Notes: a model not told the origin generated them from the letters alone. A DNA stretch of 64,000 nt from a phage (GCA_011939005.1 GCA_011939005.1_4858.1), one strand, 5' to 3'; numbered from the stretch's first letter, positions 29,428 through 62,792 are shown. Translations and numbers: made by a program.

Positions 29428-29456
29428 TTTTAAGCTCCTGAATTGGAAGAAACATT

Positions 29457-32400
29457 ATGGCAAAAAGAGGCAAAGACGGTTTCGATGATATCGATTTAGA
29501 TAGACTCGACGACTGGGATGATTTCGGTGAACCACCCCGTCCCAAAGACGAGAAAAAACGAAGCCCGATACTCAGTACCCTGAATGTTGCCAGGAAGTCG
29601 GCGTTGTCAACTATCTGGCCAGAAGGGAAACGCGACCAAGTTATCCTCAAGGGGATGCCTAAGCCGGCAGCTGATGCATACGAGGGTTATCAGTCAGCGG
29701 CAGCTGCAGCAAAGGACATTTACGCCCATACGAAAGGGGAGCTTGAGAAGACCGAGCGCACGCTGAAGATGCAAGCGCGCCAACTCGGTCCGACGATGAA
29801 GAAATACTTGCCGGATGCAGTTACTAAGCGCTTCGACAAGTGGTCAAAATCTGACCAGTTAGATTACCAGAACTACGATCCGAATCAGGCATTGATGGAT
29901 CGTGAACTGGGCGACGTATTCTCAGGTGTGCCAAAGGACGCCGACGAACAACGTCAGCTGCAGGACCGCATGGTAGAGGATAAGCTCCGCGACAGCATCA
30001 AAGAGATGCGCGCGGATGCAATGCACCAAACCATGATTGGAATGGCGAAGGACATTAACCTGTTAACCGGGTTAAGCCGTGGGGTATTCTTAAACATCGA
30101 GCGTAAGAAACTCGAATTGCAATACCGTACCCTGTTCGCCATTCAAGACATCGTGAAGATGAAGCAGTCGGAGTTCGATCGTAACACGCCTGCTTTAGAA
30201 GCCATCGTGAAGAACACGGCGCTGCCAGACTACGCGAAGGAAGATTTCTCAGAAGTCCGTTGGGCAAACGTTAAACGCCAGGCTGCGGAATGGATGAACC
30301 CATTGCGTTATGCTGACGGGTTTATGGACATGATTCGCGAAAATACCAAGAAGAAAATTTCTGGTATATTTGGCGAAGGTCGTGGTTTGTTAGAGTCTGT
30401 TCTCGGCATGGGTGTTGAAGACGATTTCGGCATGAGCGATAGCTCTTCGTTGACTGCCGAACGTCGCAAAACAAATGCTCGAGATAAAGCAACTGCATGG
30501 GGTAGCGGATTCCTTGCGAAGAAACTACTCGGCCCACAAATCGAGAAACTCCAGAAATGGACTCGTGAGGAGATGGAGAAAAATCCAGAGGTCATGAAAC
30601 GCCTGCAGAAGGGCGCGTTCACCTTTGGTAATCTTTCCTCTATCTCGAACTCAGCTATCGCAGGCGAAACGCAAGGACCGTTGGCGGATTTGTTCCGGGT
30701 ATTGAATGAACTCGGTATTGTCCAACCGTTAAACCGTGAGAAAGCCTTCCTTGACGAACGTAATGGCGAAACGTTAAGCCGTTCGGCGAAATTTGACCGT
30801 AAAGCATATCTTAGCCTGGTTGAAGTTATTCCTGCCTGGCTGGCAGAGATTAACAAATCTGTTCGTCGGGGTTATGGCGAACATGCCGACCTGGAATACG
30901 ACATCACTAGTCGTGGGTTCGTAGACCGTAAAGTGGTCGGTAACCGCGTACGCAAGGCGGTTGCAAACGATGAACAACGCCTGCGTCTCCAAAATTCCAT
31001 TAACAGCACTGTGGATTTTGTTGACCGCGGCAAAACGCTCTCGCAGAAGGATCGACAGCATCTCGCCGACTATATCGAGTCGCGAGCCTCGCAGGGCCGC
31101 GCATTCGACGTAGAAGCGATTCTGAAAGACCCGATGCATCTTCATCGGTATATGCCAGGAAACGCCGCAGAACGCATTAAGGAAGCGTTACAGGGGCATT
31201 CTGATAGCTTGGTCGGCGGTAGCAACGAATTAAGTAACGAGCTGGCCCGCAAAATCTCCACAGTGCAGTCATCTATCACCCAACGTCAGGCAATTATCGA
31301 CGAGGCGGTGAATATTTACGGTGAGCGAGCATTGCGCGATGCGGGTATCTTTAACTACGACGCGAAGAGTGACACTTTCGGCGTGGATAAAGACCTGTCC
31401 GATCCCTATACCTTGTTTAATGACTTGGCGATGGGCAAGACACGCAGCGGGCGTGCATTGACTCGTGACCAGGAGATTCAACGTAAGCTGCAAAATGGTT
31501 CGGCGTTAGGCGACTATCTGCGCCGAATGAACCAAGGGGCAAGTGGTGGTGCCGATGACACGTCGTTGCCGCCGGCTTTACGTGGCGGTGGTAAAGGCCG
31601 CGGAATGTCGCCTCGGCAGTTAGCCGCAGTTCTCTACGGTGAAACCTCGACTAACTTTGTTGAATTGTTGAGTCAACGTAACCGTGGCGAAGAAGCACCA
31701 CGGAATAACTTTGACGGTATCATCGAAGCGATTCGGGGTAATAACAACAGTGACACCCTCCAGAAAATTCTGGAACACGTCAGAAGTATGGACGAAGAAG
31801 GGGTTCTCCTGGCTTCGTTAGCAGGGGGTGCTGGTTCTGGTGACGAAGAGATGGGACCACCTCGTCCTGGTGGTGGTAGCGGTGGCGGTAAACGCCGCCG
31901 TATTATCATCGGTGAGGATGGGCTTATTCGTCGTTGGGGCGGTGTGTTGTTCGACACTGCAGCAGGAATCGGTGGCTTTGCAAAACGTGGTGTTAAAGGT
32001 GCCTGGAATAAACTGAATCAGTTCGGTGGCTGGGCGCGCGGTAAAATCGCGGGGATGGGCGGCGGAGAAGGTCCTGGTTTCTTAACCCGGATGCGTGGCC
32101 TTATCAGCGGTAGTGTCCGTGGGGGCTTTGAAGCGGTAAGCTCTTTCGGTAAAGGATTGCTGGGTATCCGCGACGTTTACGATGACCACGGTAATGTTGT
32201 ACTGCAAGGTGCACGTCTGGAAGCTGGAGAATACTATCAGGTCATTGATGGTAAAATGGTTCAGCTGAAAACGCTGGACGACATCAAACTGGGGAGTGAT
32301 ATTGTTGACTCCGCAGGTAATCTGGTATTAGCAGCCGCTGACTTAGCCGCTGCGGGTAAACTCCGCTACTATAAAGGCGGGAAAATCCAAGCACTGACCC

Positions 32401-35400
32401 AAGGTCTGGCCAGTAAGATTGGCTTAGGCTTTAATAAGGTGGCTAAGCTACCGAAACGGTTCCTGGATTTCCTGTCACCGAAAGCGGGCAGCATCGTTGG
32501 TAAGATTAAGGACTGGCTGAACGAGATTCCGGAAGGCGAAGAAAAGACACGTCTCCAGAAAGCGTTCAACCGCGTAACGAGCTTACCGGGTAAAGTGCTC
32601 GGTTTTGCGAAACGTGGTGTCGACCGTCTGAAAGACATGATTACCGACAACCCACTGACGCGTTGGTGGAAAGGCCGTAAAGATGGTGGGGGTGGTGGTT
32701 TCAGTCTCTTCTCATCAACCGGCAAGAAAACCAACCACATCCTTATCCGTATCTATAAACTGTTGAACCAACGTTTACCGGGCGATCCGGAAGACGAAAG
32801 TTGGACAGAAGAAATGGAGAAGGGTGTCGGTGGCGGTGGTAGTACGATCGGCCGTGCAGTTCGCGGGGCGTATAATCGTGCGAAATCGTCGTTGTCTGAA
32901 CGTTTTGGTGGACGTTGGTCAAGAACAAAAGCGTTCTTTGGTCGTGGACGTGACCGCCTGCGTGGTTGGTTCAGTGGTTTCCGAGGCCGGGCTGGGGATA
33001 TGCTCGATGGATATCGTGGAGCACGACACGACATTGCTACACGTTACGAAGTTGAACGTCGGTTGGCTGGACGCGATGACGATGTTGCTGAGTTTTATCG
33101 CAGCCATTTGAACGCGAAAGGTGGTCTTTCTGGCCGTAAAGTCTACGGTGACGCGAAGGACGACCTTGAGACCGCGCGCGATGCAGCAGGTCGGGTTATC
33201 AACAAAGGGAAGAATGCTGCCAAGTCTGCAGGTGCAAGGTTATTCGAACGCTTGGACCGAATGATCGGCTTGCAAGAGATGTCATGGTTTAACACCATGC
33301 GCGAATCAGTATCCCGTGCAGGTGGTGACGATGGCATTATTCGTACCATGTTTGCGAAGTTCGGTAAACGTAACAAGCCACCTGAAAGTGATGAAAAACG
33401 CGACTACCTTAACTTCTTCAAACGTTGGCGTGAGAAACGTAAGGAGAAGAAAGAGAAAGCGCAGGGCTCCAAAGGGAAATCTGGCGGTCTGTGGGATATG
33501 GTGAAAGGCTTACCTATCATCGGTCCCATCGTCAGTATCTTGGGAACTGTGGGTAATATACTCGGTTCTATCACGAAATGGGGTGTGTTAAAACCAGTAG
33601 GTCTTTTAGGTAAGGCTGCGTGGAATGTCGGTAAGTTCGCAGTAACCCGTTTGGCGGCACCCGCGGTGTCCGCTGTGGCAACTGCGGCATCTGCCGTCGT
33701 GACAGCAGTGGGCTGGCCGGCAATTCTTATCGGTGGTGCGATCGCCGCGGCTGGTTACGCCGCGTACAGGATTGCAACGACTACCTATACCCAGTACCTG
33801 GATAAGATGCGTTTAGCTCAGTACGGTTTCCGTGATTACGATAAGTGGTCGTCGGACGACGGGGCGAAAGCGCGTTACTTAGAAGACGCATTGCGTGAGT
33901 ATGTGTCTTACGCGGAAGATGGCCAAGCCAGTCTCCGTGGGCTAAGTGGAAAAGACGTTCAGAAGTTAGCTGAAGGGTTCGGTATTAACGTTGAGGAAAA
34001 AGGCGAGATGTTGGCCTTCCAAGCGTTTATGCTTCAGCGCTTTATTCCGATTTATCTCCGCTGGATTACGGCACTGAAGTCAATGCCGAACAGTATCCAG
34101 TTGGCTGACGTCGGCGATGCGAAGAAAGTATCGAAAGAGGACATGCTGACTCTCTTCAACAAAATGAAGATGACTAAGGATGCAAAAGCGTTCTCTTCGT
34201 TAACAGACCCACGCAAAGTCAACCAAGGTTTCTTCTCGAAAGCTTGGGACGTTGTAACCTTTACACCGAAGGAGTTCTTGAGCGGTGAAGAGGTTATGGA
34301 AGTGCAGAATGAAGTCGAGCGTGCAATCAAGTCCAGAATGGACGATAAGAAAGCACGTAAGTACGGAATGGCACCGGCCGTGGAGGGGATTAAGTCCGCG
34401 GGCGTTGATGAAGCTATCAACAAACTTGGACAGTTGGATAACGAACGTAATAAAAATCTGGCGAAGGTAGAAGGTTGGGAAGACGGAACAGAGCAGGTTC
34501 AGATTCAGGTAGACTGGAATGCGGTGCTCGACCAGAAAGACATGAATGCGATGGAATCGGTGCGTTGGAAGACTTACGGCTTTACCACCATCGATAACGC
34601 CACCCGCACTTTGATCACGGTATTCGAGAAGAACGTCATCAAAGACATTGACGTGAAAACCGCAAGCTACAAAGGAGATTGGAAGAAAGCCATCGCCACG
34701 ATGGTTCCAGACGCTATCGGTACACCGAAAGAAGATCGTTTGAAACGGTGGTTCTTTGACCGTTTCTTACCGGTATTCATGACGTATTTGGTTGGGGTGA
34801 AGCGTTACCTGCCAACAGCCGATCCGCTGAACTTGAAACTGACCGGCGGCTACCTGTACGAAATCAGTCTGATGATGTCAACTGCCTACAGCCTGAAAGG
34901 TGGTATAAGACAGTCGGTGTGGGAAGTGAATATCAACCCATTAGGGGGTGAGGCTAACACGAACCCATCATCCATCAAAGCCGAACTGGAAACGCTGAAG
35001 CTGCTGTCAAAAGAAGCTGACCTTGCCGTGCGTAACATGATTAAAGCCATTAGAAATAATGGCAAGCGTGCGCGCTGGAAGGATCGTAACAAGAACCGCA
35101 GTTCTCTGGAAGTTACCGGTGAGGATGAAGAAGACTCGAACATCAGTTCGGGAGATTCTTTGTCATCTGACGGTGCTCGCGCCTCAGGCTACATTCCATC
35201 GGGTACGAGTGGTGGTGTGCCGGGTAACTTGGGTCAAGTCGTCGATGCGGTTGGTGGTGTGCGGAACTACGCTGCAATGACCACTGGTTCGTCTTCGATT
35301 AACCTGAGTGATGTGAAAGACGGTGATTATAAGTCACTGGCTGAAAAATACCCGATAGAAATGTTGGGTAGAAAGGGTGCGTTGAACGTTCCGAATATCA

Positions 35401-36578
35401 AAGCATTGATTACCGATGCGGCGAACATGATGGGCGTGCCACCTGCAGTGGCGTTAGCAATGGCTAAGGCGGAGTCCGGATTTAACTACACCGCTAAAAA
35501 CCCGTATGCTTCGGCGTCTGGGCTGTTCCAGTTCATTGACGGCACGTGGAACGGGATGATGAAGGGGTATTCGCGGAAGTTTGGTATTCCGCGTGTTAAC
35601 CAAATGGACCCGTGGGCGAATGCTATATTGGGTGTACAGTTCATTCGTGACAACATCCAACAAGCACAGCGTGACCTGGGTGGTAAAGCACCACCTCCAG
35701 CCGTGGCTTATCTGTACCACTTCTTGGGTGCAGGCGGCGGTAAGAAGTTCTTGGAAGCATGGAAGCGTAATCCGAATATGGCGGCATCGAGTGCTCCTGG
35801 GATTACATCTGCAATACTGAGAGGGAATGCCAACGTCTTCTACAGCAACGGTCGTATACGTAGCGTAGACGGGGTTATTCAGGAACTGAACCGCCGTATG
35901 GGCGCAATTTCCGCCAACGAAGTCGCTGCCGATCCGAGTAAGACGAAGGATATGGTTGCAGGCTTGTCGCCTAATTCACCAACCAACCCGGCAGCAGCAA
36001 TGGGTGCACCGGCCGCTAATGATCCGAGTCTGTCGCCAGCAGATAACCTGCCAGCAGATAATGCTAATCGTCGTGATGACGCATTGACGCAGAAAGGGGC
36101 CATGGCGGCACAAGATGCAATGGCTACCGCCGCAGGTAATGTAGGACCAGCAGCACCTACACCAACCACAGGCGGTACCGGAACATCCGATGCCTCAACA
36201 ACGGCCGAAACCGTAGCGTCGCAAGCTGCAGCAGAAGGATTGTCTGCGACGGATGTTGCTAAAGTGAAAGCAGGCGCGGAAGCGCAGGTTAACGCAGCAG
36301 CTCGTCCAGTTGCCGCTCCAACTTCTGATGCTACAGCATCGACGCCAACGCTGAATGGTGACCCGATGGATGTTCAGCAGCTCAAGGTACTGATTCAGTC
36401 TCGCGATTACTTGAAAGAGATTCGTGATATTTTGAAATCAAATCCGAGAGCAGCAAACGACACGCGTGGTGGTAGTATCCAGCAAGCGGCAAATGTGGCT
36501 CCTCCGGGCTCAGCTGCACGTAGGCAGGAAATAACCCAACCGACACCGTCGTTAAACGTAAGTCGGAAAGCAAGCTAA
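29457..36578 (+). CDS. Giant virion protein (2373 aa) with C-terminal lytic transglycosylase (SLT) domain; tape-measure/ejection-protein candidate
   Basis: Uninterrupted 7.1-kb ORF; SLT motifs AMAKAESGFN (catalytic ES), SASGLFQF, AYLYHFLGAGG at about nt 35430-35770; Gly-rich repeats; long hydrophobic segment (PIIGPIVSILGTVGNILGSI ... AILIGGAIAAAGYAAY). Confidence 0.85.
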   Translation: MAKRGKDGFDDIDLDRLDDWDDFGEPPRPKDEKKRSPILSTLNVARKSALSTIWPEGKRDQVILKGMPKPAADAYEGYQSAAAAAKDIYAHTKGELEKTERTLKMQARQLGPTMKKYLPDAVTKRFDKWSKSDQLDYQNYDPNQALMDRELGDVFSGVPKDADEQRQLQDRMVEDKLRDSIKEMRADAMHQTMIGMAKDINLLTGLSRGVFLNIERKKLELQYRTLFAIQDIVKMKQSEFDRNTPALEAIVKNTALPDYAKEDFSEVRWANVKRQAAEWMNPLRYADGFMDMIRENTKKKISGIFGEGRGLLESVLGMGVEDDFGMSDSSSLTAERRKTNARDKATAWGSGFLAKKLLGPQIEKLQKWTREEMEKNPEVMKRLQKGAFTFGNLSSISNSAIAGETQGPLADLFRVLNELGIVQPLNREKAFLDERNGETLSRSAKFDRKAYLSLVEVIPAWLAEINKSVRRGYGEHADLEYDITSRGFVDRKVVGNRVRKAVANDEQRLRLQNSINSTVDFVDRGKTLSQKDRQHLADYIESRASQGRAFDVEAILKDPMHLHRYMPGNAAERIKEALQGHSDSLVGGSNELSNELARKISTVQSSITQRQAIIDEAVNIYGERALRDAGIFNYDAKSDTFGVDKDLSDPYTLFNDLAMGKTRSGRALTRDQEIQRKLQNGSALGDYLRRMNQGASGGADDTSLPPALRGGGKGRGMSPRQLAAVLYGETSTNFVELLSQRNRGEEAPRNNFDGIIEAIRGNNNSDTLQKILEHVRSMDEEGVLLASLAGGAGSGDEEMGPPRPGGGSGGGKRRRIIIGEDGLIRRWGGVLFDTAAGIGGFAKRGVKGAWNKLNQFGGWARGKIAGMGGGEGPGFLTRMRGLISGSVRGGFEAVSSFGKGLLGIRDVYDDHGNVVLQGARLEAGEYYQVIDGKMVQLKTLDDIKLGSDIVDSAGNLVLAAADLAAAGKLRYYKGGKIQALTQGLASKIGLGFNKVAKLPKRFLDFLSPKAGSIVGKIKDWLNEIPEGEEKTRLQKAFNRVTSLPGKVLGFAKRGVDRLKDMITDNPLTRWWKGRKDGGGGGFSLFSSTGKKTNHILIRIYKLLNQRLPGDPEDESWTEEMEKGVGGGGSTIGRAVRGAYNRAKSSLSERFGGRWSRTKAFFGRGRDRLRGWFSGFRGRAGDMLDGYRGARHDIATRYEVERRLAGRDDDVAEFYRSHLNAKGGLSGRKVYGDAKDDLETARDAAGRVINKGKNAAKSAGARLFERLDRMIGLQEMSWFNTMRESVSRAGGDDGIIRTMFAKFGKRNKPPESDEKRDYLNFFKRWREKRKEKKEKAQGSKGKSGGLWDMVKGLPIIGPIVSILGTVGNILGSITKWGVLKPVGLLGKAAWNVGKFAVTRLAAPAVSAVATAASAVVTAVGWPAILIGGAIAAAGYAAYRIATTTYTQYLDKMRLAQYGFRDYDKWSSDDGAKARYLEDALREYVSYAEDGQASLRGLSGKDVQKLAEGFGINVEEKGEMLAFQAFMLQRFIPIYLRWITALKSMPNSIQLADVGDAKKVSKEDMLTLFNKMKMTKDAKAFSSLTDPRKVNQGFFSKAWDVVTFTPKEFLSGEEVMEVQNEVERAIKSRMDDKKARKYGMAPAVEGIKSAGVDEAINKLGQLDNERNKNLAKVEGWEDGTEQVQIQVDWNAVLDQKDMNAMESVRWKTYGFTTIDNATRTLITVFEKNVIKDIDVKTASYKGDWKKAIATMVPDAIGTPKEDRLKRWFFDRFLPVFMTYLVGVKRYLPTADPLNLKLTGGYLYEISLMMSTAYSLKGGIRQSVWEVNINPLGGEANTNPSSIKAELETLKLLSKEADLAVRNMIKAIRNNGKRARWKDRNKNRSSLEVTGEDEEDSNISSGDSLSSDGARASGYIPSGTSGGVPGNLGQVVDAVGGVRNYAAMTTGSSSINLSDVKDGDYKSLAEKYPIEMLGRKGALNVPNIKALITDAANMMGVPPAVALAMAKAESGFNYTAKNPYASASGLFQFIDGTWNGMMKGYSRKFGIPRVNQMDPWANAILGVQFIRDNIQQAQRDLGGKAPPPAVAYLYHFLGAGGGKKFLEAWKRNPNMAASSAPGITSAILRGNANVFYSNGRIRSVDGVIQELNRRMGAISANEVAADPSKTKDMVAGLSPNSPTNPAAAMGAPAANDPSLSPADNLPADNANRRDDALTQKGAMAAQDAMATAAGNVGPAAPTPTTGGTGTSDASTTAETVASQAAAEGLSATDVAKVKAGAEAQVNAAARPVAAPTSDATASTPTLNGDPMDVQQLKVLIQSRDYLKEIRDILKSNPRAANDTRGGSIQQAANVAPPGSAARRQEITQPTPSLNVSRKAS

Positions 36579-36626
36579 TCGTAGGGGGTGGCAACACCCC
36601 CTAATCATCTTACAGAGAGGTTTTAC

Positions 36627-38849
36627 GTGGAAGCAAGACAACTAAAAGATTCAGGATGGGTAACCGGCCTGTTTGGCGGTACAACCGCACAGCGCGATGA
36701 GCGCTTCCTGGGTTTGCGTCGTTACTCTAACGCGATGCTCTCGTTTGAAGATACCACGATGGGTGGTTCGCAAGCGTTAAATGCGCCGCCGCAGTTTACG
36801 ATGTTTGCTGATCCGAGTTCAACAGGTGCTTTTGCACAACCTGATGCAGGTCGTGGCTCGTACTCAAAGTACGTTAAAGGTCAAGACCAACGTGGTTCCT
36901 ATCGTTTAGGGACTTTCTATTACGAAGCTATTAACCAAAACAGTTTTTATCTTCATTGTCGTTTCGGTAAACCTCGATATATCGGGGTAGCTGCATTCTT
37001 CGCGAATATGTACGATTCCAACCTAGCGTATCTGGCACGCACAGGTGACTACCCAGGTATGTTACGTGCGATGGGGACGTATGTTGCCGCCGCAGCAATA
37101 TGGGCCGCAGTAGGTACGGTTGCCTTTGCGGTTATTCTAATTACACCACGTATGTTGAAGATGGTGCTGAACAAGCAGACTTCTCGCTACTACTACGTGA
37201 AACCGACAATGCACTTGTATCTGCGCGCTGTGCAGAATATGGTCAACACCCAGTTAGTTTATCGCCGATTGGTACCAACGGGTGTGTTAGGGACTTTCCA
37301 GCTTGCTAATGCTGTAGATGGGTCTGAGAAAGGCGGTACTGCTAATAAGTACAACGGCGACCGTAAAGAGTGGTACTCCATGCTGCCAGAAATCTGGACA
37401 GCTGATGGTGAGTTCGATATCTATCGAATGATTAACCGCTACCAAACATTAGCCAACTACCAGGCGAAAACCATCGATAAAATTCGTAAAGAGTCGAGTA
37501 ACGAAGAGGACATGGCTCGTCGTTTGCGAAACTTCTATCTGGAAGCGACGTACTCAACAACCCATTTGGAGAAAGCTGCGCAGTACGAGGTTTCTTTACG
37601 TAACCTTGAACATGTAGCCAAAGCTGGTAAAGGGTACGATGCTGGTTTTGAAAACGTCGACAACAAAGAAGACGAACTGGTAGCAGGGATGAACGGCAGC
37701 ATTCAGGATGCTCAGTCACAAGGGGGTAAGGCTGAAAACTTCGAAAACGAAGGTGATGCGCAACGTAAAGAGCTTGCCGAGCGTATGGCACAGGTTGAAA
37801 AGAACCAGGCACAGGTTGCTAAAAGTCAGACCGAAGCAAACTCAATGGATGAGAATAATCTCGACATTGGGAAGATTGAAAACTGGATGGACCAAGGCCA
37901 GAAAGAATCTGTCGGTAGCGTCTTCAAAGACTATATCGATATTTTAGAAGGCGCTATGGATGGGTTAACTTCGAACATCGCTTCGGAGATACGCAATGGT
38001 TCGCAGTGGATTACTTGGCGTGTTGATGGACGTGATACCGTAGGGCGTTCGTTCTCCAACACCACCAAAGAACCTGAAATCTCTGGCACGGTTAACTCCG
38101 CCACACAGAAAGCACGTTCTTTGGAAGTAAACCTCTCTGGTGGTAAGACTGGTTTCGACGCAGTCGATGGTCTCATTACTGGGTTGAAGTCCGCCTTTAC
38201 AGGCGCACTCGATTTCTTACATTTATCAGGGATTATGTCACTGTACAACTCGTCGGTGATTGACTTCCCGGAAGTGTGGGACTCCTCAGACACCTCAGGT
38301 GACGATATCTCGCTAAGTATTCCCCTTCGCTGTTGGTCGGGTAATGACTTAGATGTGTTTCAGGATCTGATTGTCCCGTTGTCGTTCTGGTTAGCGGCAG
38401 TTTGTCCGTTAGCAACCGGTAAACAATCGTTTACACACCCGTTCTATCTGGAGTGCTATTCTCGCGGTCGTTATTCCATGCGTAATGCCATGGTAACTAA
38501 CTTGAGTCTCCAGTTTGGTACAGGTGGGTTAGGGTGGCGTGCTGACGGTCTGCCGTTGTCGTGTGATATACAGGTAACTATTCGTGACCTGTCACGCGTT
38601 ATGTACATGCCGATTGTAACCGATATTGGTGTGTTTGATGATGATAACAAGTTCAGTGAATTTATGTCTGTGTTGGGTGCTGCCACGCTTTACGAGCGTA
38701 CCAACGGTATCGCGCAGGCTAAAATCAACGCGTCTATCTGGGCGCAGAACTGGGCAAGTGCCTGGTCACAGGGCAGCATCGTCAACGCCGCATTAGATAT
38801 CATACCGGCACGACAAATCGCGAACATTTTCCTACCACAAGCGCGATAG
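36627..38849 (+). CDS. Hypothetical protein (about 740 aa), probable structural; GTG start at 36627 preferred over 36588
   Basis: SD agagagg 6 nt before GTG 36627; the listed start at 36588 is a GTG inside a hairpin right after the upstream stop. Confidence 0.6.
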   Translation: MEARQLKDSGWVTGLFGGTTAQRDERFLGLRRYSNAMLSFEDTTMGGSQALNAPPQFTMFADPSSTGAFAQPDAGRGSYSKYVKGQDQRGSYRLGTFYYEAINQNSFYLHCRFGKPRYIGVAAFFANMYDSNLAYLARTGDYPGMLRAMGTYVAAAAIWAAVGTVAFAVILITPRMLKMVLNKQTSRYYYVKPTMHLYLRAVQNMVNTQLVYRRLVPTGVLGTFQLANAVDGSEKGGTANKYNGDRKEWYSMLPEIWTADGEFDIYRMINRYQTLANYQAKTIDKIRKESSNEEDMARRLRNFYLEATYSTTHLEKAAQYEVSLRNLEHVAKAGKGYDAGFENVDNKEDELVAGMNGSIQDAQSQGGKAENFENEGDAQRKELAERMAQVEKNQAQVAKSQTEANSMDENNLDIGKIENWMDQGQKESVGSVFKDYIDILEGAMDGLTSNIASEIRNGSQWITWRVDGRDTVGRSFSNTTKEPEISGTVNSATQKARSLEVNLSGGKTGFDAVDGLITGLKSAFTGALDFLHLSGIMSLYNSSVIDFPEVWDSSDTSGDDISLSIPLRCWSGNDLDVFQDLIVPLSFWLAAVCPLATGKQSFTHPFYLECYSRGRYSMRNAMVTNLSLQFGTGGLGWRADGLPLSCDIQVTIRDLSRVMYMPIVTDIGVFDDDNKFSEFMSVLGAATLYERTNGIAQAKINASIWAQNWASAWSQGSIVNAALDIIPARQIANIFLPQAR

Positions 38850-52322: not shown

Positions 52323-53816
52323 TTATTTCTTCTTAGTCAAGAACTTAGGTTCCAGACCATCCACGGCCATCGCCAGTAATGACATTGCTGTTAAGCAACG
52401 CTTACCACCTTTGACTTCCTGATCCTTGAACATCCAGTATTCCACTGTATTGTCCAGAATTTCATTCCAGTCCCACTTTTCGTCGATAACTTTATAAAGC
52501 TCCGCCGGTGAGAGATGGTACTTCATTTCCAGTCGGTGGTAGTTATTCTGCATGTACGCTAATGCGGCGGTGATTTCCAACGCACGGCGCAAACGCGGGT
52601 TGCTGTCACACATGTCGCGAATCGTGGTACGCATGAAAGATGTACCAGGTAGCAAATCGAGGGTATAGTTAGCACCACTACGTTTGTAGCCCCATTCATC
52701 TTTCAGTGTGTCGCTCAGGTAATGCCACAGAGAGAGGTGATAAAGCAGACCCATCTCCTGCGAGAAGACCATTTTGAACTTAACGCCTGTGTGACCACCC
52801 TTCGCACGGTACTGCGTGAAAACAATTTCTTTCAGGTCGTTCACCGAAGCATTCATTGCTTTCGAACGCGCAGTCGGGTATTTCTCTTCGTTTACACCGG
52901 TCTTCGCGTTGTAAGTCTGATCCTGCTTCAACTCACCAGACTTGGTTGCAACCAGCAGGGAGTTAGTTAAGAACGACAACTGACGGCGCGGGATACCCGC
53001 AAACTTCAGATCATCGCCTGCATCGTCCAACAGTTTACCGTTCGCCTTCGGTCCACCACGGCCACCTGCCGCCATTGCTTTACCCGCATCGTCGGCCAAC
53101 TGAGCAACGAAGCCCATATAGAAACCACCACGCGCAAACGCAGACGGCCAACGGCTCATCATATTCGATTTCTGCAGGGCATCGTGGGCGTTCAGGATGT
53201 TCTGTTCAGAATCACCGACTTCCGATTTGGCATGTTTCTCTTCCAGAGAAGAGGTGTGCCATTCGGACAGGGAGTCAATCGAGTACAACCACGGGTCGAG
53301 AATCTTTTTCGCAGAGCGACGGATTGGGTCAGGGAATGGTGTTTCGCGTGCCTTACCAGCCATATACTCTTTGAAACGTTTTTCGACTTCGTCACGGATA
53401 TAAGCAGAGTAATACTCCTCACCCGCCATGATATCCGAGCCAACCATGTTGTAACGACCTTCGTGGATCAGGTCCAGCACGCCGCCCGTTGGTGATACTT
53501 CTAATCCGTTTGCTTTCGCTGCGGAAATGTACCCCGTTTCCAGACGACTTAATGCTGCCGTAACTTCGGTATCGTATTTCGATCCCCAGGCTGCATTATA
53601 ACGTTGCAGAATCATGAAAATGCAGAAGTCTAATAAGGTAGACTTAAAGGTGTTCCCACGACCTGCGAAGCCCATGATGTGGGCAAAACCACCGTTGAGG
53701 TAGTACAAACCATCTTCCCCGCGCTCGTAGTTACCGAGAGCGTGGTCCATGATGGTATATACGTTAAAACGAGGGCGAATTACTTCACCCATGACTTGTT
53801 TAGCTGGACCTGCCAT
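52323..53816 (-). CDS. UvsX/RecA-family recombinase-like ATPase candidate (497 aa)
   Basis: MGFAGRGNTFKSTLL resembles the atypical T4 UvsX Walker A LAGPSKSFKSNFGL (F-K-S in place of G-K-T), recalled from memory; rest of protein not verified. Confidence 0.4.
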   Translation of the reverse strand: MAGPAKQVMGEVIRPRFNVYTIMDHALGNYERGEDGLYYLNGGFAHIMGFAGRGNTFKSTLLDFCIFMILQRYNAAWGSKYDTEVTAALSRLETGYISAAKANGLEVSPTGGVLDLIHEGRYNMVGSDIMAGEEYYSAYIRDEVEKRFKEYMAGKARETPFPDPIRRSAKKILDPWLYSIDSLSEWHTSSLEEKHAKSEVGDSEQNILNAHDALQKSNMMSRWPSAFARGGFYMGFVAQLADDAGKAMAAGGRGGPKANGKLLDDAGDDLKFAGIPRRQLSFLTNSLLVATKSGELKQDQTYNAKTGVNEEKYPTARSKAMNASVNDLKEIVFTQYRAKGGHTGVKFKMVFSQEMGLLYHLSLWHYLSDTLKDEWGYKRSGANYTLDLLPGTSFMRTTIRDMCDSNPRLRRALEITAALAYMQNNYHRLEMKYHLSPAELYKVIDEKWDWNEILDNTVEYWMFKDQEVKGGKRCLTAMSLLAMAVDGLEPKFLTKKK

Positions 53817-56024: not shown

Positions 56025-56567
56025 CTAGAAATTGCCAATAGTGATGGGCTGCGTTGGCTCGACCACAATCAGTATTTCTTTCAGACGTGAAACGATATGC
56101 TCCCAGATCTGTGCTTCGAGGTGACGTAGCATAGTGGTGAACTCCTCCATATACATCTTTTTATACTCGTCGCGGTTGAGATGTTCCCACGCTTCTTTCA
56201 ATGGGCCTGCTTCCGGTCCAGACATCTTAATCATCATTTCGATGTCCTTCATTTCATCAAACGCTTTACCGACCTTATCAATAACCTCATCGGTCTTGAG
56301 TTCGAGTGAGAAGCGACCCATCTTAGACTGCAGGAAGCCGTCTTCAATGTCTTCGTCGTTGTATTCGAAACACGCAATACGTTGCGCGAGTTGATGAACT
56401 TCATTTACCGCGATATTGACGTACGCCGCAGAGATAAGTCCAGCGAGGTGTTGACGATCGATATTCTTCGGTATCAGATAGTCTTCACACTTACGCTTAA
56501 ACTCGAACAACGCCGCTGGAAATATTTCACGAAATTCGTCATCGAGTAAATCAATGAATATTTTCAT
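56025..56567 (-). CDS. Hypothetical protein, 180 aa (tandem paralog of next gene)
   Basis: ORF; shares N-terminal M-x-I-x-IDxx and internal RF-x-L...TD...DKVG segment with 56564-57103. Confidence 0.55.
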   Translation of the reverse strand: MKIFIDLLDDEFREIFPAALFEFKRKCEDYLIPKNIDRQHLAGLISAAYVNIAVNEVHQLAQRIACFEYNDEDIEDGFLQSKMGRFSLELKTDEVIDKVGKAFDEMKDIEMMIKMSGPEAGPLKEAWEHLNRDEYKKMYMEEFTTMLRHLEAQIWEHIVSRLKEILIVVEPTQPITIGNF

Positions 56568-57103
56568 TCAACAGGTTTCCCATATTTCTCGCCGAGATAC
56601 AGCAGTTCGCGACGACAGATAGCCAGCACCTTCATCTCCGCCTCACGATACAGCTTGGTGATTTTGTCAATGATTGGCTGGTCAACGATATCGGACCATG
56701 TTACCGTATCCGTAACGTTCGACGTTTGCCCGTTAATGACCACAGCAACATATGTCTCGCCCAGGTTCTCTTGATGTAACCCCGCCAGAGATTCACCAAC
56801 CTTATCAAAGGCTTCACTCAATAAGTCGGTGATTTGGTCCGTCCCTTCTACCAGTTCAAAACGATGGGGATAGTTCAGAATGTTACGCAGCCGCGTGAAC
56901 ATACGCTCAATAAGCTGATTTACCATATCCCCAGTGTCACAGATAGTCACATCTACACCCGAACCTATTTCGTCAGACAAACGATTTTCGTGGACGGCCA
57001 ACGCATCGTGAAGTTCAAATTCCACGTCACGTTTTAATCCTAACAGAATTTCATCTAGCTGACGTCTCGACTCCGACAGAGCGAAGTCAATTACGATTTG
57101 CAT
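56564..57103 (-). CDS. Hypothetical protein, 179 aa (tandem paralog)
   Basis: ORF; see previous. Confidence 0.55.
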   Translation of the reverse strand: MQIVIDFALSESRRQLDEILLGLKRDVEFELHDALAVHENRLSDEIGSGVDVTICDTGDMVNQLIERMFTRLRNILNYPHRFELVEGTDQITDLLSEAFDKVGESLAGLHQENLGETYVAVVINGQTSNVTDTVTWSDIVDQPIIDKITKLYREAEMKVLAICRRELLYLGEKYGKPVE

Positions 57104-57113
57104 CTAATGCTCC

Positions 57114-57521
57114 TTAAAAGTTACTTAACTCGGGCTGCGTATACCAGTATCTGCACGCTACGAGATCCACAACGTTATATTTCAGTTGTCCACCGTGCTG
57201 TGACGTGTCTGCCAATTCATGCGCAAGCTTGTACGCCAAGTCTTCACGGTTGTCGAGGATAAGCAACACAACACGCTGCACCTCATTAAAGATATCCGGT
57301 TCACGTAAACAACTGTAGCGCTCGCTAAGATGCTTAATAACGCCTTTATAAACATCTTCTGGTACAGCAGTGCCATTTTCTGCTACGTGGAATGAAACAA
57401 GCACGATTTTAATTAAAATCTCGACAACCATGGAGTATATCATTCCACGGTTGCCGTTAATTTCCACATGCTTTAGATACTCTTGCAAGTCCATCAATGA
57501 CTCGCTATACACCTTTAACAT
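57114..57521 (-). CDS. Hypothetical protein (about 136 aa; start at ATG 57521)
   Basis: SD agaggtgg before ATG 57521, 11 nt after upstream stop. Confidence 0.45.
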   Translation of the reverse strand: MLKVYSESLMDLQEYLKHVEINGNRGMIYSMVVEILIKIVLVSFHVAENGTAVPEDVYKGVIKHLSERYSCLREPDIFNEVQRVVLLILDNREDLAYKLAHELADTSQHGGQLKYNVVDLVACRYWYTQPELSNF

Positions 57522-57532
57522 AGCGACCACCT

Positions 57533-57904
57533 CTAGTTGGTTGCCGGCCACACCCCTGGCGATGGGATTGCATCGTATCCACGCCATTTCTTAATGGCAA
57601 CAAGGCTAGTGCCTGGGGAGCCGTCTAAATCGAAACCGACGGTTGCAACCACATCAACTTCGGTTTCTAAGTTAGAGTGGCCGATCGGAGAGAGGTGGGA
57701 GAAGCTGACGACTTTACCGCCCTGGATGGCGGTATCTCGAACTATACGAGCCATCTGTCTTATTTCTTGAGAAACTGGGCCGCGTAGGGTGGTTACCCGC
57801 GACGATAACGTCAACCAGTTTTCGCTCTCGGGTGCGACTATGTACAGAATAGTCCCTTCTTTAAAGTATTGTTTAACCAGTGTTTCAAATTCGTCTTGCG
57901 TCAT
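57533..57904 (-). CDS. Hypothetical protein, 123 aa
   Basis: ORF. Confidence 0.45.
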   Translation of the reverse strand: MTQDEFETLVKQYFKEGTILYIVAPESENWLTLSSRVTTLRGPVSQEIRQMARIVRDTAIQGGKVVSFSHLSPIGHSNLETEVDVVATVGFDLDGSPGTSLVAIKKWRGYDAIPSPGVWPATN

Positions 57905-57917
57905 GTTAAATACTCCT

Positions 57918-58652
57918 TCAGTAGTTTAGTTTCTCAGCGACTTCTTTACGGATGCGACACATCACCACCATCGCACCATTCGGAATTTGGCTCACGCAGT
58001 TATCCGTGTAAAACTTACCTTCACAGAGATAAAAGTCCAGACACATGGCATCGGTCAGTTCGTGCCACAGTGTGCCGAAACCATACTGCCAAGGGCCGGA
58101 ATGAACGACATCGTAATCGCCATCAGTTATGCCAAATGCGGCAGTAGCGGAAGACCACAGTGTTGAGGAGGTGGTATAAGTGTCATACCAGTAACCGAGC
58201 AGTCGATGGTTACGACGTATCTCAGCTAACCGCTCGTACATTGGGATGAATACGTCCTCCACTTGCGTGACAAAATCAGCCAGCATCAACTTTTCCGTGA
58301 ACCACTCGATCCACGCAAAGATTTGTTCTTCAACGTCTTGTTGGCTTAACCCCGTGGCAGTAATGCCTTCTTCGTAGGTGTAACCTTCGTAGACGTCAAC
58401 AACATTAATCTCTACATGCTCTAGCGTGAACAACCGTTCGGTGTTGATGCAGTCGTACATCTCTTGTAACCACGCAGTGAAGACTTCTATACAGACGTTG
58501 ATGGCTGTATACTTGAATTCATCGCGCAGAGGATACCACTGTGGGTTATCCTTTAGTTCGTTCTTCGCGAACGCGGGCCAATGCTTTTCGAACAACGCTT
58601 CAAAGAACTGGGGCGTGAGGTTTAAAAGCACCGGCACTTCGACTTTAAGCAT
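57918..58652 (-). CDS. Hypothetical protein, 244 aa
   Basis: ORF. Confidence 0.55.
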   Translation of the reverse strand: MLKVEVPVLLNLTPQFFEALFEKHWPAFAKNELKDNPQWYPLRDEFKYTAINVCIEVFTAWLQEMYDCINTERLFTLEHVEINVVDVYEGYTYEEGITATGLSQQDVEEQIFAWIEWFTEKLMLADFVTQVEDVFIPMYERLAEIRRNHRLLGYWYDTYTTSSTLWSSATAAFGITDGDYDVVHSGPWQYGFGTLWHELTDAMCLDFYLCEGKFYTDNCVSQIPNGAMVVMCRIRKEVAEKLNY

Positions 58653-58705
58653 CGTGAATAAATTCTCCTTAAGGTTACGTCCCTGTAGATAATATCTATC
58701 TCAGA

Positions 58706-59446
58706 TTACTTTAAGAGATGCAAGAAGCGTGCTGCCTGTTCTGTAAAGTGAAAATACTCGATGGTATCAGGTTCGTCCGAGTGAATGTCGTCCGGGTCCA
58801 GCAGGTAGCCCGAGATATCATCCGTTAAAACCCAAGCGTCCCCTTGCAGGAAAATACCCATCGGTTTTTCTACCACGGGCATCACTAAGTCCGAATAAGA
58901 GTTACCTTCTGCTACCCTTACAATGTCTTCGCACGGGTCAACAATATACAGGTTGCAGAGACTGCGATCTTTAAGACTGCGATGAAACATCGCTCGATCG
59001 TACCAAATAACCTGAGAACAATTATCTTCGTCACCCGCCACATCGACCAACTCTGTCCAGAAACGATGTAAGAACCAGTTCAACGCACCGGTTATTAGCT
59101 CGTTCGGTTTCAGCATTCTAACGTGTTCGTCGTACAACTCTTCCATTGTCCAGATTCGACATTGCTCACGATCGATTGTCGGTAGCGGAGGTATTTGCGG
59201 CGGGACTTGTTTAGGCATCGGCTCATCACATCTTGCATTGTAACGCGCAATTGTTTCGGTAACCAGCTCTGCCACAACATCACAAGCCGCTTCAAATCCC
59301 CACTTGTACAACACGTCGTAATCTTCCATGGGCGCAGCACCGAACTCACGGTTCGTTGCCATCCACGACATCCATCCGTATTGCTCCACACAGTTAATCA
59401 GACTTTGTGTGTGGAGCGTGAGCGATTCACTCACGACTCGCAACAT
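58706..59446 (-). CDS. Hypothetical protein (about 247 aa; start at ATG 59446)
   Basis: SD gaggtg; ATG overlaps stop of upstream gene (ATG at 59444-59446, TAA at 59448-59450). Confidence 0.5.
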   Translation of the reverse strand: MLRVVSESLTLHTQSLINCVEQYGWMSWMATNREFGAAPMEDYDVLYKWGFEAACDVVAELVTETIARYNARCDEPMPKQVPPQIPPLPTIDREQCRIWTMEELYDEHVRMLKPNELITGALNWFLHRFWTELVDVAGDEDNCSQVIWYDRAMFHRSLKDRSLCNLYIVDPCEDIVRVAEGNSYSDLVMPVVEKPMGIFLQGDAWVLTDDISGYLLDPDDIHSDEPDTIEYFHFTEQAARFLHLLK

Positions 59447-59447
59447 G

Positions 59448-60962
59448 TTACACCTCTTCTTCTCGCAGTATGCGACGGTTTGCGTAATACGCACACCACA
59501 ACCCATGATACTCTTTACCGATATAGATTAAGAAGTAACGGATGTAGTATTTTTCAGGACGACACACCGCGATGTAATAACGGCCTTCCGGTTCTTTAAT
59601 ACGGTTGATTTCCGTACGCGATGGAATATCGATACCGCGAGTCAAAATAACCGAGACAGGTCGTTTACCCATCGGAAAGTCGATCTTTAACGTTATTGAC
59701 TTATCGACGCTACGGTAGTATTCCTTGACAGGTTTACCTTTGTCGTCGAATAGCAAGTCGGTAATGTCGTTTAAGACATAACCCTTTTCCTGATGCAGAA
59801 CATCTCTCAACGTTGTAGCGAGTTCGTCACGAATATCCAGCGCACGGTACGACAATAAGGGCGGGCGAAGCATTCTGGAGATGGCCAGGTCTTCAAAGAA
59901 CCAGACATTAGAATCCTCCCCACTGAAATGCATCTTGTCTGCCGGCAATCCGTCGCCTGCCACATCAACGAATTTCTTACGCTTAACGAACTCATTGTTA
60001 ACAACGCCAATTGGATCATACTGCCGCATCTTCGGTGTATCTTTCCATGCCAGGGCGGCGTGGTTGTTTACAATCGTGTAGATGTTATCCCACGGTTGTT
60101 TAGTGAACATTACGGAAAAGTGTGCATCGGGAATCATTTTCCCAATAAACACCAAGTCGTCCTTGTTCTTTGCATGGTTGCCACCAAACATGTAATAGAA
60201 AGTTTCATCTTTCACTTTTACAGTAGGATGGTCTTCGTTCACCAACGGATAGCAATATTTAACCGTACAAATCGGCGGATATGCCGCAAGGTTCATCCCA
60301 GCGGCGATGGGCTCGGGTTCCGCGGATGCAGGCAACTCATCCTTCGACCAGTACGGCTGATATGGAACACCGTCGTTGGTCGCGGTGATAGCTGAACCTT
60401 TTCTAGCCAATTCGTCCGCCCGGTCGTTACCGTAGTGGCCGGAGTGTCCTTTGATTTTGATAACCTTAACACCCCGTCCTTCTTTTTTCATCTGCTGTTT
60501 GATTTCCCAGATACGAACAATAAGTTCTTTGTTCGCCAGCGGAGTACCATCAGCACGAACCCAACCACGTTTATGCCAGCCGTCTATCCACTCGTTAAAA
60601 GTGTTTACAACGTAACTGGCATCCACGTAGATGATATAGTTCTTCGCACGGAATGGCGCATTCTCAAACAACGTGATGAAGGCGATTAACTCGCCCACAT
60701 CTGAGTAGAACTCTTTCGGAACGGGAATAACGGCGTCGACAAATTGAACGGTGTCCGGCAACTCCGGACACTTCACATCCTGCGGCACTTTTTTGTATCC
60801 AACAGTGGTAATCCGTTCTGAAACACCCGGATGGCTATAAGCCTGACTGTCTTCCAAATCTCCGTTGTTGAATAAATAACCATGAATACCAGCCCCCGAA
60901 CCTTTCGGGGACTCAGTATGACTACCATCGGTATAAATAACCGCTACGTCGACGTCTTTCAT
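59448..60962 (-). CDS. RNase HI-domain protein with about 300-aa C-terminal extension of unknown function
   Basis: N-terminal domain matches E. coli RNase HI at all five catalytic positions: VAVIYTDGS (D10), GELIAF (E48), YVDASY (D70), KGHSGH (H124), NDRADELA (D134). Confidence 0.85.
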   Translation of the reverse strand: MKDVDVAVIYTDGSHTESPKGSGAGIHGYLFNNGDLEDSQAYSHPGVSERITTVGYKKVPQDVKCPELPDTVQFVDAVIPVPKEFYSDVGELIAFITLFENAPFRAKNYIIYVDASYVVNTFNEWIDGWHKRGWVRADGTPLANKELIVRIWEIKQQMKKEGRGVKVIKIKGHSGHYGNDRADELARKGSAITATNDGVPYQPYWSKDELPASAEPEPIAAGMNLAAYPPICTVKYCYPLVNEDHPTVKVKDETFYYMFGGNHAKNKDDLVFIGKMIPDAHFSVMFTKQPWDNIYTIVNNHAALAWKDTPKMRQYDPIGVVNNEFVKRKKFVDVAGDGLPADKMHFSGEDSNVWFFEDLAISRMLRPPLLSYRALDIRDELATTLRDVLHQEKGYVLNDITDLLFDDKGKPVKEYYRSVDKSITLKIDFPMGKRPVSVILTRGIDIPSRTEINRIKEPEGRYYIAVCRPEKYYIRYFLIYIGKEYHGLWCAYYANRRILREEEV

Positions 60963-61681
60963 TATTCTCCTCGCAACTGCGGTGGAATGTATTCACCTGT
61001 GCACATTTCGCGGTGAGCTTCTAACATGCGTTCGAAGCCGTACGTACGCGCGACCAGGGCCAAATGATAGATGCGTGCCGTAGAATACGCTTCCTTCGCA
61101 GCATCAAAGTTAGCGTTATGCTCGTACGCTTCTTTGCCGCGGGTCCAATGGTGCGCTTCTGCGTGCCAGTTCGGTTCCAGGCCAAACGCATATGCAATAC
61201 GTTCTGCAGTCCGGTCAGAGTCCAATATAGAAAACTTGCGGTACTTGCCCGGCGGGATATCGCACTGCGCGAATGCGTTCATCAGAATTGGAGCATCGAA
61301 ATCGGGACCACGCATGGTGATAACCATTTTCACGTTGCCCAGATCATCCAACCATTTTTTGGCCGCCCACAGCGCTTCTGGCAGTGGAGTGGTCCCAGAA
61401 AACGCTTCAATACGTGCTTTCTCGCTCGGTGCGTATTCGGGGTCGCCTTTACCTTCCCAATAACCGACCGTTTGTGGATCGATGTAGAAGATTTCTTTTG
61501 CTTTTGCATCATTGGGGTCGATTTTGTGGTAACATGAACCGATCATTTTCATTGTCGGAACATCGAATGCCACGTTTGCCAACGTTAAGATGTAGGCATC
61601 TGGACGTAAAGCCAGGGTCTCTAAGTCCGTCCCAACAACAACGGTGGGCGTTAAAACAGGCAGAATTTTAGGATATGTCAT
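60962..61681 (-). CDS. DEDDh-family 3'-5' exonuclease
   Basis: Exo I GTDLET, Exo II PDFDAPIL, Exo III HNANFD in order. Confidence 0.6.
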   Translation of the reverse strand: MTYPKILPVLTPTVVVGTDLETLALRPDAYILTLANVAFDVPTMKMIGSCYHKIDPNDAKAKEIFYIDPQTVGYWEGKGDPEYAPSEKARIEAFSGTTPLPEALWAAKKWLDDLGNVKMVITMRGPDFDAPILMNAFAQCDIPPGKYRKFSILDSDRTAERIAYAFGLEPNWHAEAHHWTRGKEAYEHNANFDAAKEAYSTARIYHLALVARTYGFERMLEAHREMCTGEYIPPQLRGE

Positions 61682-61725: not shown

Positions 61726-61764
61726 GTAAAAAAGGAAATCCCCTCTTACCCGAAGGTAAGAGGG
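61726..61764 (-). terminator. Intrinsic terminator (hairpin 61741-61764, C(UUCG)G loop)
   Basis: 10-bp stem ccctcttacc/ggtaagaggg, loop cgaa on plus, A6 run 61728-61733. Confidence 0.7.
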
Positions 61765-61769
61765 AGTTT

Positions 61770-62249
61770 TCATTGCACAAGGCAACTACTTTTGTGCCGT
61801 TCGTAGGCACGATTAAAAGACTCTCTGTCTTCGCGATAGCCGCGAATGAGAGACTTAATCTGTCGTGACAAATCACGACTAATGTCTTGAGGGCTACGAG
61901 AACCAGGGTCGAGATATATCCCGGAGGGTATACCATGAAGAGTGGGGCGAATAAACTCTTCACAAAGCGGTGCGGTCATCGGGGTGTGCCACCCTTTAGC
62001 TTCTGCATAGTTGTTTACTGACTTAGCGTACAGATAAACGTAATAAGCATAAGCGTTCACATCCGCAACAAACATTTTCCCTGCCAGCTTTTTCGCCTCA
62101 GGACTGTTCCCACCGTTATATACTGGTGGGTGTTCTAAAGGACGAAAAGGCCAATCTCCGGTTGAGGAGTAATCTGGGTCTACGTGACGGATGACCCCAG
62201 GGCATCCTGTCAACAATAGCACCAGTATCGCCACCAAAAATAACTTCAT
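61770..62249 (-). CDS. Lipoprotein (o-spanin-like candidate)
   Basis: Signal peptide with lipobox MKLFLVAILVLLLTGC; directly downstream of a type-II membrane protein gene. Confidence 0.5.
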   Translation of the reverse strand: MKLFLVAILVLLLTGCPGVIRHVDPDYSSTGDWPFRPLEHPPVYNGGNSPEAKKLAGKMFVADVNAYAYYVYLYAKSVNNYAEAKGWHTPMTAPLCEEFIRPTLHGIPSGIYLDPGSRSPQDISRDLSRQIKSLIRGYREDRESFNRAYERHKSSCLVQ

Positions 62250-62258
62250 GTATGCTCC

Positions 62259-62768
62259 TCATGGATTATTAAGCGTCTTGATAATCTCCTGTCGGAAATC
62301 GTTTGCCGCCTGCGACCCCACTGGGCGAGAAGCCGCCTGGTGTTTCTTGGCAGGCGGGCTAGACGGATTTAACGGTGCCTGTGGTGTTACCGGCTTGAGT
62401 TCTTCAGGCGGAACCGCGGCCCCAGTGCCTGTCCCTGTTGGAGATTTGGTACCATCATATGGCGATCGAGAACCCAGGCATGTGAAGAGACGATCGTACA
62501 GCTTATTGTTCTCCACTTCGCCATGATCGGACTTCTCTTTTAGCTCCTTATAGGATATCTCCAGATACTGAGTACGCGATTGGACGCTAACCAGTGTGTG
62601 GTATTGAACAATATAGGCATATGAGACAAATGCAGAGAACGCGACCAGTGCCACTATCACTAGTGTCACTATCTTCCCGGCTCGTGTTACTTTCTCCCCC
62701 TCGCCCGGTTTAAATGCTTCCCACAGCATCTGTAAGAATGGAAGCAGTTTGAAAACTGATGCTATCAT
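62259..62768 (-). CDS. Membrane protein with single N-proximal TM helix and Pro-rich C-terminal region (i-spanin-like candidate); ATG at 62768
   Basis: TM segment IVTLVIVALVAFSAFVSYAYIV; SD gaggtg 4-5 nt before ATG 62768 (ORF track begins at GTG 62774). Confidence 0.45.
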   Translation of the reverse strand: MIASVFKLLPFLQMLWEAFKPGEGEKVTRAGKIVTLVIVALVAFSAFVSYAYIVQYHTLVSVQSRTQYLEISYKELKEKSDHGEVENNKLYDRLFTCLGSRSPYDGTKSPTGTGTGAAVPPEELKPVTPQAPLNPSSPPAKKHQAASRPVGSQAANDFRQEIIKTLNNP

Positions 62769-62792
62769 GCTCACCTCGGAGAGTTTTTAATT

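Follow-up and report, generated by a model that had tools for sequence, protein, structure and literature searches.

The question raised by this locus is what function resides in the long C-terminal part of a phage protein that begins with an RNase HI domain, and how that protein relates to the DEDDh 3′-5′ exonuclease encoded next to it. The two genes lie on the minus strand of a 64,000-nucleotide stretch of phage DNA (GCA_011939005.1), here called the window, which shares 98.5% identity with genomes of the Salmonella phage SPN3US type (genus Seoulvirus, ∼240 kb); SPN3US is a phiKZ-related jumbo phage. An earlier note on this DNA had described a protein of 504 amino acids (aa) with all the catalytic residues of RNase HI, some 300 C-terminal residues that could not be assigned, and a DEDDh exonuclease as the next gene upstream; each of these descriptions was borne out (Table 1 and below). 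We conclude that the 504-aa protein is very probably the SPN3US-lineage form of Rhc (RNase H-clamp), which serves the split B-family polymerase of the chimalliviruses as third subunit, and that the exonuclease gene is a lineage-specific accessory gene.

The protein has two domains. In the N-terminal part, the Pfam model RNase_H (PF00075) covers only residues 89–190 (E 8e-22), and phmmer matches to PDB sequences, those of E. coli and human RNase H1, are confined to residues 91–202 (E 3e-13). An insertion of ∼40 residues (Table 1), shorter in PhiKZ gp155, keeps the first half of the domain out of the Pfam alignment. All five RNase HI catalytic residues (D12, E91, D114, H173 and D183) are found in the protein, and across 45 homologues each is either invariant or conserved to at least 90%. 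They map onto D10, D102, H161 and D171 of PhiKZ gp155, and D114 aligns with PhiKZ D102 and Goslar D119, the sites mutated in the published catalytic-dead proteins. As judged by these alignments, the protein has the intact RNase HI active site expected of a member of the Rhc family.

Over its full length, the 504-aa protein matches phrog_3265 (E 1e-189) and ∼45 homologues of 500–530 aa, with identities down to 37%, most of them on large contigs of up to ∼250 kb. Its counterpart in Escherichia phage vB_EcoM_EC001 is 100% identical, and in SPN3US the two genes of the pair are annotated as gp059, ‘ribonuclease’, and gp060, ‘3′-5′ exoribonuclease’. BLASTP extended the similarity across both domains to PhiKZ gp155 (NP_803721.1; 26% identity, E 8e-38, residues 5–494 against 3–476) and to Goslar gp190 (YP_009820929.1; 26% identity, E 4e-37), both characterised Rhc proteins, so that by sequence comparison the protein is a homologue of Rhc in both its halves. 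Records LR5359xx (Salmonella phages SPFM1, 5, 7, 8, 9, 10, 12, 14 and 20) were left out of the alignments. They match the region only in numerous short stretches (up to 40), and their ‘hypothetical proteins’ are fragmented. In appearance they are assemblies with many errors, and they make the family seem more diverse than it is.

The gene neighbourhood agrees with this identification. SPN3US-type phages, PhiKZ and Goslar share the order RNA polymerase beta subunit, UvsX-like recombinase and Rhc, followed by a virion structural gene encoded on the other strand. A UvsX/RecA-like recombinase of 497 aa (52323–53816, minus strand; phrog_97), the orthologue of PhiKZ gp152 (Nlp1; BLASTP E 1e-53), anchors the synteny with PhiKZ and Goslar. 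Other genes of the window are also typical of the phiKZ group, namely those for the large terminase, the tail sheath, virion RNA polymerase beta subunits and, again, the recombinase. Taken with the orthologue of the polymerase subunit DNAP-N described below, this synteny places the window in a phiKZ-related jumbo phage with a predicted split polymerase.

The closest points of comparison are thus PhiKZ gp155 (Rhc/Nlp2) and Goslar gp190. PhiKZ gp155 has the same two domains in a protein of similar size (482 versus 504 aa), the same catalytic residues and neighbourhood and a clamp-like fold, whereas its RNase H insertion is shorter, its interface residue F478 is not conserved in the window protein, and no exonuclease gene precedes it, the upstream gp156 encoding a 137-aa protein. 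Goslar gp190 (508 aa), likewise from a phage of an enterobacterial host, has published domain boundaries (1–209 and 210–508) that match those found here, and its D119 corresponds to D114; the gene upstream of it, gp189, is unrelated to the exonuclease.

For the C-terminal part, residues 200–504, we found no Pfam model at E≤10 and no PDB sequence with phmmer, and NCBIfam matched the RNase H part only. An AlphaFold2 model of the full-length protein built from the 45-sequence alignment had a mean predicted local distance difference test score (pLDDT) of 89.4 and a predicted template modelling score (pTM) of 0.57, with pLDDT below 50 at residues 210–215; the low pTM and the low-confidence linker indicate two flexibly linked domains in the model. 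Modelled alone, residues 200–504 gave a pLDDT of 89 and a pTM of 0.86. The structure prediction that the earlier note had proposed for this region therefore yielded a confident model, for which Foldseek suggested a clamp-like fold. Against the PDB, Haloferax PCNA ranked first (E 1.1e-3, probability 0.84), ahead of 9-1-1 and further PCNAs; template modelling (TM) scores were only 0.26–0.30. Against BFVD, the domain was structurally conserved in jumbo-phage ‘ribonuclease H’ proteins (TM 0.64–0.90), after which came weak matches that included viral clamps.

Taken alone, these clamp-fold scores are suggestive only. They were obtained independently of the Rhc preprints, and the assignment that they suggest is the one reached by the authors of the experimental PhiKZ structure. 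In that work, in which the name Rhc was given (Basu et al., bioRxiv, 1 Oct 2026, PMC13648687), cryo-electron microscopy (cryo-EM) related the C-terminal domain distantly to PCNA and 9-1-1, without the elements that form a ring; a single Rhc subunit sits on the thumb of DNAP-C and contacts the emerging duplex, with the DNA on the surface equivalent to the inner face of a clamp. In the models, the ∼280-residue C-terminal domain of the window protein is thus predicted to have the sliding-clamp-like fold of Rhc, and what the earlier note called unknown is the sliding-clamp-derived domain of an Rhc family already described in PhiKZ (gp155) and Goslar (gp190). That note had reckoned with a known polymerase or FEN domain from an already described fusion family; the family is indeed described, and the domain is a clamp. 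Both the ‘unknown’ ∼300 residues and the fusion are already known, having been described in 2025–2026. We would not class the SPN3US-type protein, on its predicted features, with the canonical ring-forming sliding clamps (PCNA, beta, gp45).

Two features of the C-terminal domain are conserved across the family. There are 20 positions that are at least 85% lysine or arginine (the domain has a pI of 8.2), and the most conserved motif is R366-P-P-L-L-S-Y-R373 (RPPLLSYR). This motif contains L370, the counterpart of the PhiKZ interface residue M346; I498 is the counterpart of PhiKZ I479.

The distribution of the domain was examined using residues 200–504 alone. With tblastn, these matched 216 phage records and reached the PhiKZ-like phages at E 4e-7; among the matches listed, the genomes were jumbo genomes of ∼210–310 kb and the genes were annotated as ribonuclease H or hypothetical. 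A phmmer search of 1.84 billion cluster representatives gave 151 matches at E≤0.001, almost all in proteins of 450–560 aa and in their C-terminal half. Neither this search nor Pfam at E≤10 reached the cellular clamps. Three short matches (233, 291 and 328 aa) were inspected as candidates for a stand-alone clamp domain and were rejected: they start inside the RNase H or the clamp domain and are truncated gene calls. The clamp domain is thus seen only C-terminal to RNase H, and the fusion is a fixed, chimallivirus-specific architecture. The phmmer matches also included a predicted protein of 2050 aa with six separate stretches resembling the Rhc clamp domain, which may be an artefact of assembly or gene calling or may reflect a repeated arrangement.

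The neighbouring 239-aa protein matches the Pfam family of Rv2179c-like 3′-5′ exoribonucleases (PF16473) with 35.3 bits against a cutoff of 27 (E 1e-8), and phrog_255, ‘exonuclease’, with E 8e-53. Its DEDDh set comprises D19 and E21 (Exo I, DxE), D129 (Exo II) and H188/D193 (Exo III, Hx4D), each of which is invariant or conserved to at least 90% across 23 homologues. A profile of these homologues found nothing significant among PDB sequences; RNase T came up at E 0.59 with the Exo II and Exo III motifs correctly aligned. By its motifs and family model the protein is a predicted DEDDh enzyme of the PF16473 family. It scores above the gathering threshold with a complete DEDDh set, yet is a distant match to the Rv2179c-like enzymes, from which it also differs in its phage-specific context beside rhc.

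In the direction of transcription, the exonuclease gene is directly upstream of rhc, and its TAA stop codon and the rhc ATG share base 60962 (TAATG), an overlap that suggests translational coupling. With tblastn, the exonuclease was detected in 81 phage records. Apart from a few weak matches in unrelated smaller phages, these belong to an enterobacterial/Vibrio subclade made up of SPN3US-like phages, jumbo phages of Erwinia, Cronobacter CR5 and Vibrio pVa-21. Wherever coordinates could be compared (EarlPhillipIV, Machina, phiEaH2, CR5 and pVa-21), it lay directly upstream of rhc on the same strand, an order kept across SPN3US, the Erwinia phages, CR5 and pVa-21 while the identity of the exonuclease fell to 33%. 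In pVa-21, a gap of 166 bp takes the place of the overlap. The proteins at this position beside Rhc in PhiKZ (gp156) and Goslar (gp189) are unrelated to the exonuclease, and we therefore rejected it as a core partner of Rhc.

The exonuclease would instead be a lineage-specific accessory gene, probably co-expressed with rhc. From its family name and gene order, it might tentatively be proposed to be a 3′-5′ exo(ribo)nuclease working on what RNase H leaves behind, by trimming or clearing RNA ends or oligonucleotides. The earlier note had mentioned RNA-DNA hybrid processing, and a lineage-specific partnership of the exonuclease with Rhc in such processing is possible. That the enzyme is a dedicated partner of Rhc in this lineage, e.g. 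an exoribonuclease clearing R-loop or primer RNA together with the RNase H domain in the phage nucleus, seems to us rather unlikely.

The earlier note had also suggested a two-gene module for primer removal and proofreading, in which the stand-alone DEDDh enzyme would supply the 3′-5′ proofreading activity. The adjacency of the genes with their TAATG overlap fits this proposal, as does the conservation of their order from SPN3US to the Erwinia phages, Cronobacter CR5 and Vibrio pVa-21. It is also in keeping with a survey of phiKZ-group phages (Iyer et al. 2021, PMC7824862), in which the polymerase has no fused exonuclease and one is encoded elsewhere. However, this separately encoded exonuclease is DNAP-N: PhiKZ has its proofreading exonuclease within that subunit (gp82), which together with DNAP-C forms one B-family polymerase (PMC13648687). 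With tblastn, DNAP-N was found in 291 phage records, and the SPN3US-type orthologue, encoded ∼135 kb away, keeps the equivalents of the PhiKZ exonuclease residues D151, E153, D251 and D452 as well as of D562 in polymerase motif A. The notion that the SPN3US-type polymerase had lost its own proofreading site and that the DEDDh enzyme compensates was therefore rejected.

Because DNAP-N keeps all four exonuclease catalytic residues, the 239-aa exonuclease is unlikely to be a proofreader. A replicative proofreading subunit would provide an exonuclease that the polymerase lacks and would occur together with the polymerase; the DEDDh enzyme appears to do neither, being found in 81 records, compared with 216 that have the clamp domain and 291 that have DNAP-N, and being absent beside Rhc in PhiKZ and Goslar. 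In addition, its family, PF16473, is named for an exoribonuclease. We consider the proofreading module improbable. The proposed place of the RNase H protein in the replication machinery is upheld by its homology to Rhc; the intact site in DNAP-N speaks against the proofreading part of the proposal.

The SPN3US-type DNAP-N was read from Escherichia phage Lh1B (1456–3240), where it is annotated only as ‘hypothetical protein’ in a record with ambiguous bases (X in the translation). At 594 aa, it is without the ‘little finger’ insertion (∼350–415 of PhiKZ gp82), in agreement with the published restriction of this insertion to some Pseudomonas phages.

What Rhc would do in the SPN3US lineage can be read from the published work. 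All phiKZ-group phages have an RNase H1 and none has a classical sliding clamp or primase (Iyer et al. 2021, PMC7824862). PhiKZ155 is indispensable both for amplifying the genome and for maturation of the nucleus. Although it has RNase H activity in vitro, its D102N mutant complements; no more than ‘well-structured’ was said of its C-terminal domain (Gerovac et al., Nature 2025, PMC12571901). In vitro, Rhc strongly boosts primer extension independently of RNase H catalysis, an effect that is lost in the interface mutant M346E/F478A/I479D (PMC13648687). Goslar gp190 was shown to share this architecture and to interact likewise with the polymerase (Rani et al., bioRxiv, 2 Oct 2026, PMC13648698); it also acts, separably, in late transcription, probably by resolving R-loops.

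From the experiments on PhiKZ and Goslar we infer that the SPN3US-type Rhc would bind the polymerase and DNA, stimulate synthesis, be essential and localise to the phage nucleus. By homology, its C-terminal domain would be monomeric, with a fold derived from sliding clamps whose concave face is basic. Docked on the polymerase (DNAP-C/DNAP-N) at the thumb and palm, it would bind the duplex as this leaves the active site, and would thus promote processivity and activity in the manner of UL42. Joined to it by a flexible linker, the RNase HI domain would cleave the RNA of RNA:DNA hybrids (primers or R-loops) inside the phage nucleus, on the template in front of the polymerase or around it.

Several points weigh against this identification of the protein and its neighbour. 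Identity to the experimentally studied Rhc orthologues is only 26%, and the function of the SPN3US-type protein is read through that homology. Among the PhiKZ interface positions that were mutated (M346, F478 and I479), F478 aligns with an arginine, and the polymerase interface may therefore differ in SPN3US-type Rhc. The need for RNase H catalysis differs between the known systems, being dispensable in PhiKZ and partly required in Goslar, for replication and for late transcription, so that it is not predictable for the SPN3US-type protein. Finally, the role proposed for the exonuclease comes from its family name and gene order only.

Two further explanations concern the clamp domain itself. 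It could be mainly a module for nuclear import or localisation, as a cargo of Imp1/PicA, and the protein an RNase H delivered to primers or R-loops that plays no accessory role to the polymerase. This would account for the import of PhiKZ gp155 (Nlp2) through Imp1, for which it has been used as nuclear cargo (Kokontis et al.), and for the finding that the isolated clamp domain of the Goslar protein goes to the nucleus and the isolated RNase H domain does not (PMC13648698). However, the catalytic-dead PhiKZ protein fully rescues replication, and delivery of RNase H cannot then be the essential role. The cryo-EM structure places the clamp domain on the polymerase and DNA, the interface mutant gives no stimulation, and the 20 conserved basic positions fit a nucleic-acid surface better than a simple import signal; we regard the import explanation as very improbable. 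Less probable still is a coincidental resemblance to clamps, with the C-terminal 280 residues forming a new alpha/beta fold with another function: the lack of any sequence-level link to a clamp family in the Pfam and phmmer searches would allow it, but ∼280 aa is the size of a two-domain clamp monomer and the experimental PhiKZ structure led its authors likewise to a clamp assignment, with DNA on the equivalent of the clamp inner face.

Read as an Rhc protein, the 504-aa product invites comparison with two other kinds of system. Herpes simplex virus UL42, which with UL44, PF-8 and BMRF1 makes up the monomeric or dimeric clamp-derived processivity factors, resembles Rhc in binding polymerase and duplex without encircling the DNA and without a clamp loader. 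UL42 differs in having no fused nuclease, in its stable rather than transient association with the polymerase and in the absence of any detectable sequence relationship. The cellular PCNA-RNase HII and PCNA-FEN1 complexes (e.g. PDB 3p83, one of the Foldseek matches) similarly tether an RNA-removing nuclease to a clamp-fold platform at the fork. In these complexes the nuclease is bound non-covalently, via a PIP motif, to a ring-shaped trimeric clamp, whereas Rhc has a type-1 RNase H covalently fused to a single, non-ring clamp-like unit.

Table 1. Features of the exonuclease-rhc region; coordinates are those of the window
Feature	Coordinates	Strand	Basis or remark
rhc gene, 504-aa RNase H-clamp protein, orthologue of SPN3US gp059	59448..60962	-	Open reading frame (ORF); phrog_3265; BLASTP to PhiKZ gp155 and Goslar gp190; phage-record identity
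RNase HI domain, aa 1-199	60366..60962	-	PF00075; PDB RNase HI matches; residue conservation; PhiKZ mapping
∼40-residue insertion, aa 32-72, between beta-strands 2 and 3 of the RNase H fold	60747..60869	-	AlphaFold2 secondary structure
Putative sliding-clamp-like DNA-binding domain, aa ∼225-504	59451..60290	-	Preceded by flexible linker, aa ∼196-224
DEDDh 3′-5′ exonuclease, 239 aa, Rv2179c-like, orthologue of SPN3US gp060	60962..61681	-	PF16473; phrog_255; motif residues
TAATG stop/start overlap, exonuclease gene to rhc	60960..60964	-	Sequence reading
Terminator-like hairpin, 11-bp stem and T-run, between upstream 159-aa gene and exonuclease gene	61740..61765	-	Consensus scan only

The surroundings of the pair were also surveyed (Table 1). 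The terminator-like hairpin is likely to mark the 5′ boundary of a transcription unit containing the exonuclease gene and rhc. Plus-strand ORFs inside these two genes were without support and were treated as spurious. The ORF downstream of rhc (58706–59506, minus strand) has a mechanical start at 59506 that would overlap rhc by 59 nucleotides, and the SPN3US annotation starts at the ATG equivalent to 59446, two bases past the rhc stop. The latter is more likely to be the start, and rhc and the downstream gene would thus be tightly packed as well.

Between the recombinase and rhc lie six small minus-strand genes (56025–59446) to which no function was assigned; two of them were scanned and matched phrog_8219 and phrog_9472. 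No counterpart of the six was detectable in the PhiKZ gp147–157 block. The first two (180 and 179 aa, with a 4-bp overlap) show weak collinear similarity (E 0.005 over 22 aa) and, as far as this alignment goes, may be diverged tandem paralogues.

Upstream of the exonuclease gene are two small minus-strand genes (61770–62774). The 159-aa product (phrog_8165) has an N-terminal lipoprotein-like signal, ‘LLLTGC’, and the 171-aa product (phrog_8719) a weak FtsH_ext/transmembrane-like match; both appear to be membrane or exported proteins, encoded between the replication genes and the virion gene. Further away, a block of strongly positive GC skew (up to +0.19) at 28000–38000 coincides with two very long plus-strand ORFs, 29457–36578 (2373 aa) and 36588–38849 (753 aa, phrog_3181); in Goslar, the genes at the matching place in the order carry the annotations ‘tail fiber protein’ (a lysozyme-domain protein) and hypothetical protein. 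Scans of the window over its whole length turned up no Rfam family and no tRNA gene.

Rhc answers a question of long standing, how phiKZ-like nucleus-forming phages replicate genomes of 200–300 kb without a recognisable sliding clamp, clamp loader or primase, an answer published in 2025–2026 for PhiKZ and Goslar. What is new here is an independent computational confirmation of the Rhc architecture in the SPN3US lineage at 26% identity, the residues conserved in that lineage (the RPPLLSYR motif and the 20 basic positions), and the insertion, seen in one subclade, of a DEDDh exo(ribo)nuclease gene immediately ahead of rhc. The genetic system of SPN3US, with its amber mutants, could suit the study both of the need for Rhc catalysis and of the function of the exonuclease. 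If the exonuclease were indeed a dedicated partner of Rhc, it would add a fourth accessory factor to the machinery with which chimalliviruses replicate and transcribe their genomes, and one not described in the Rhc papers.

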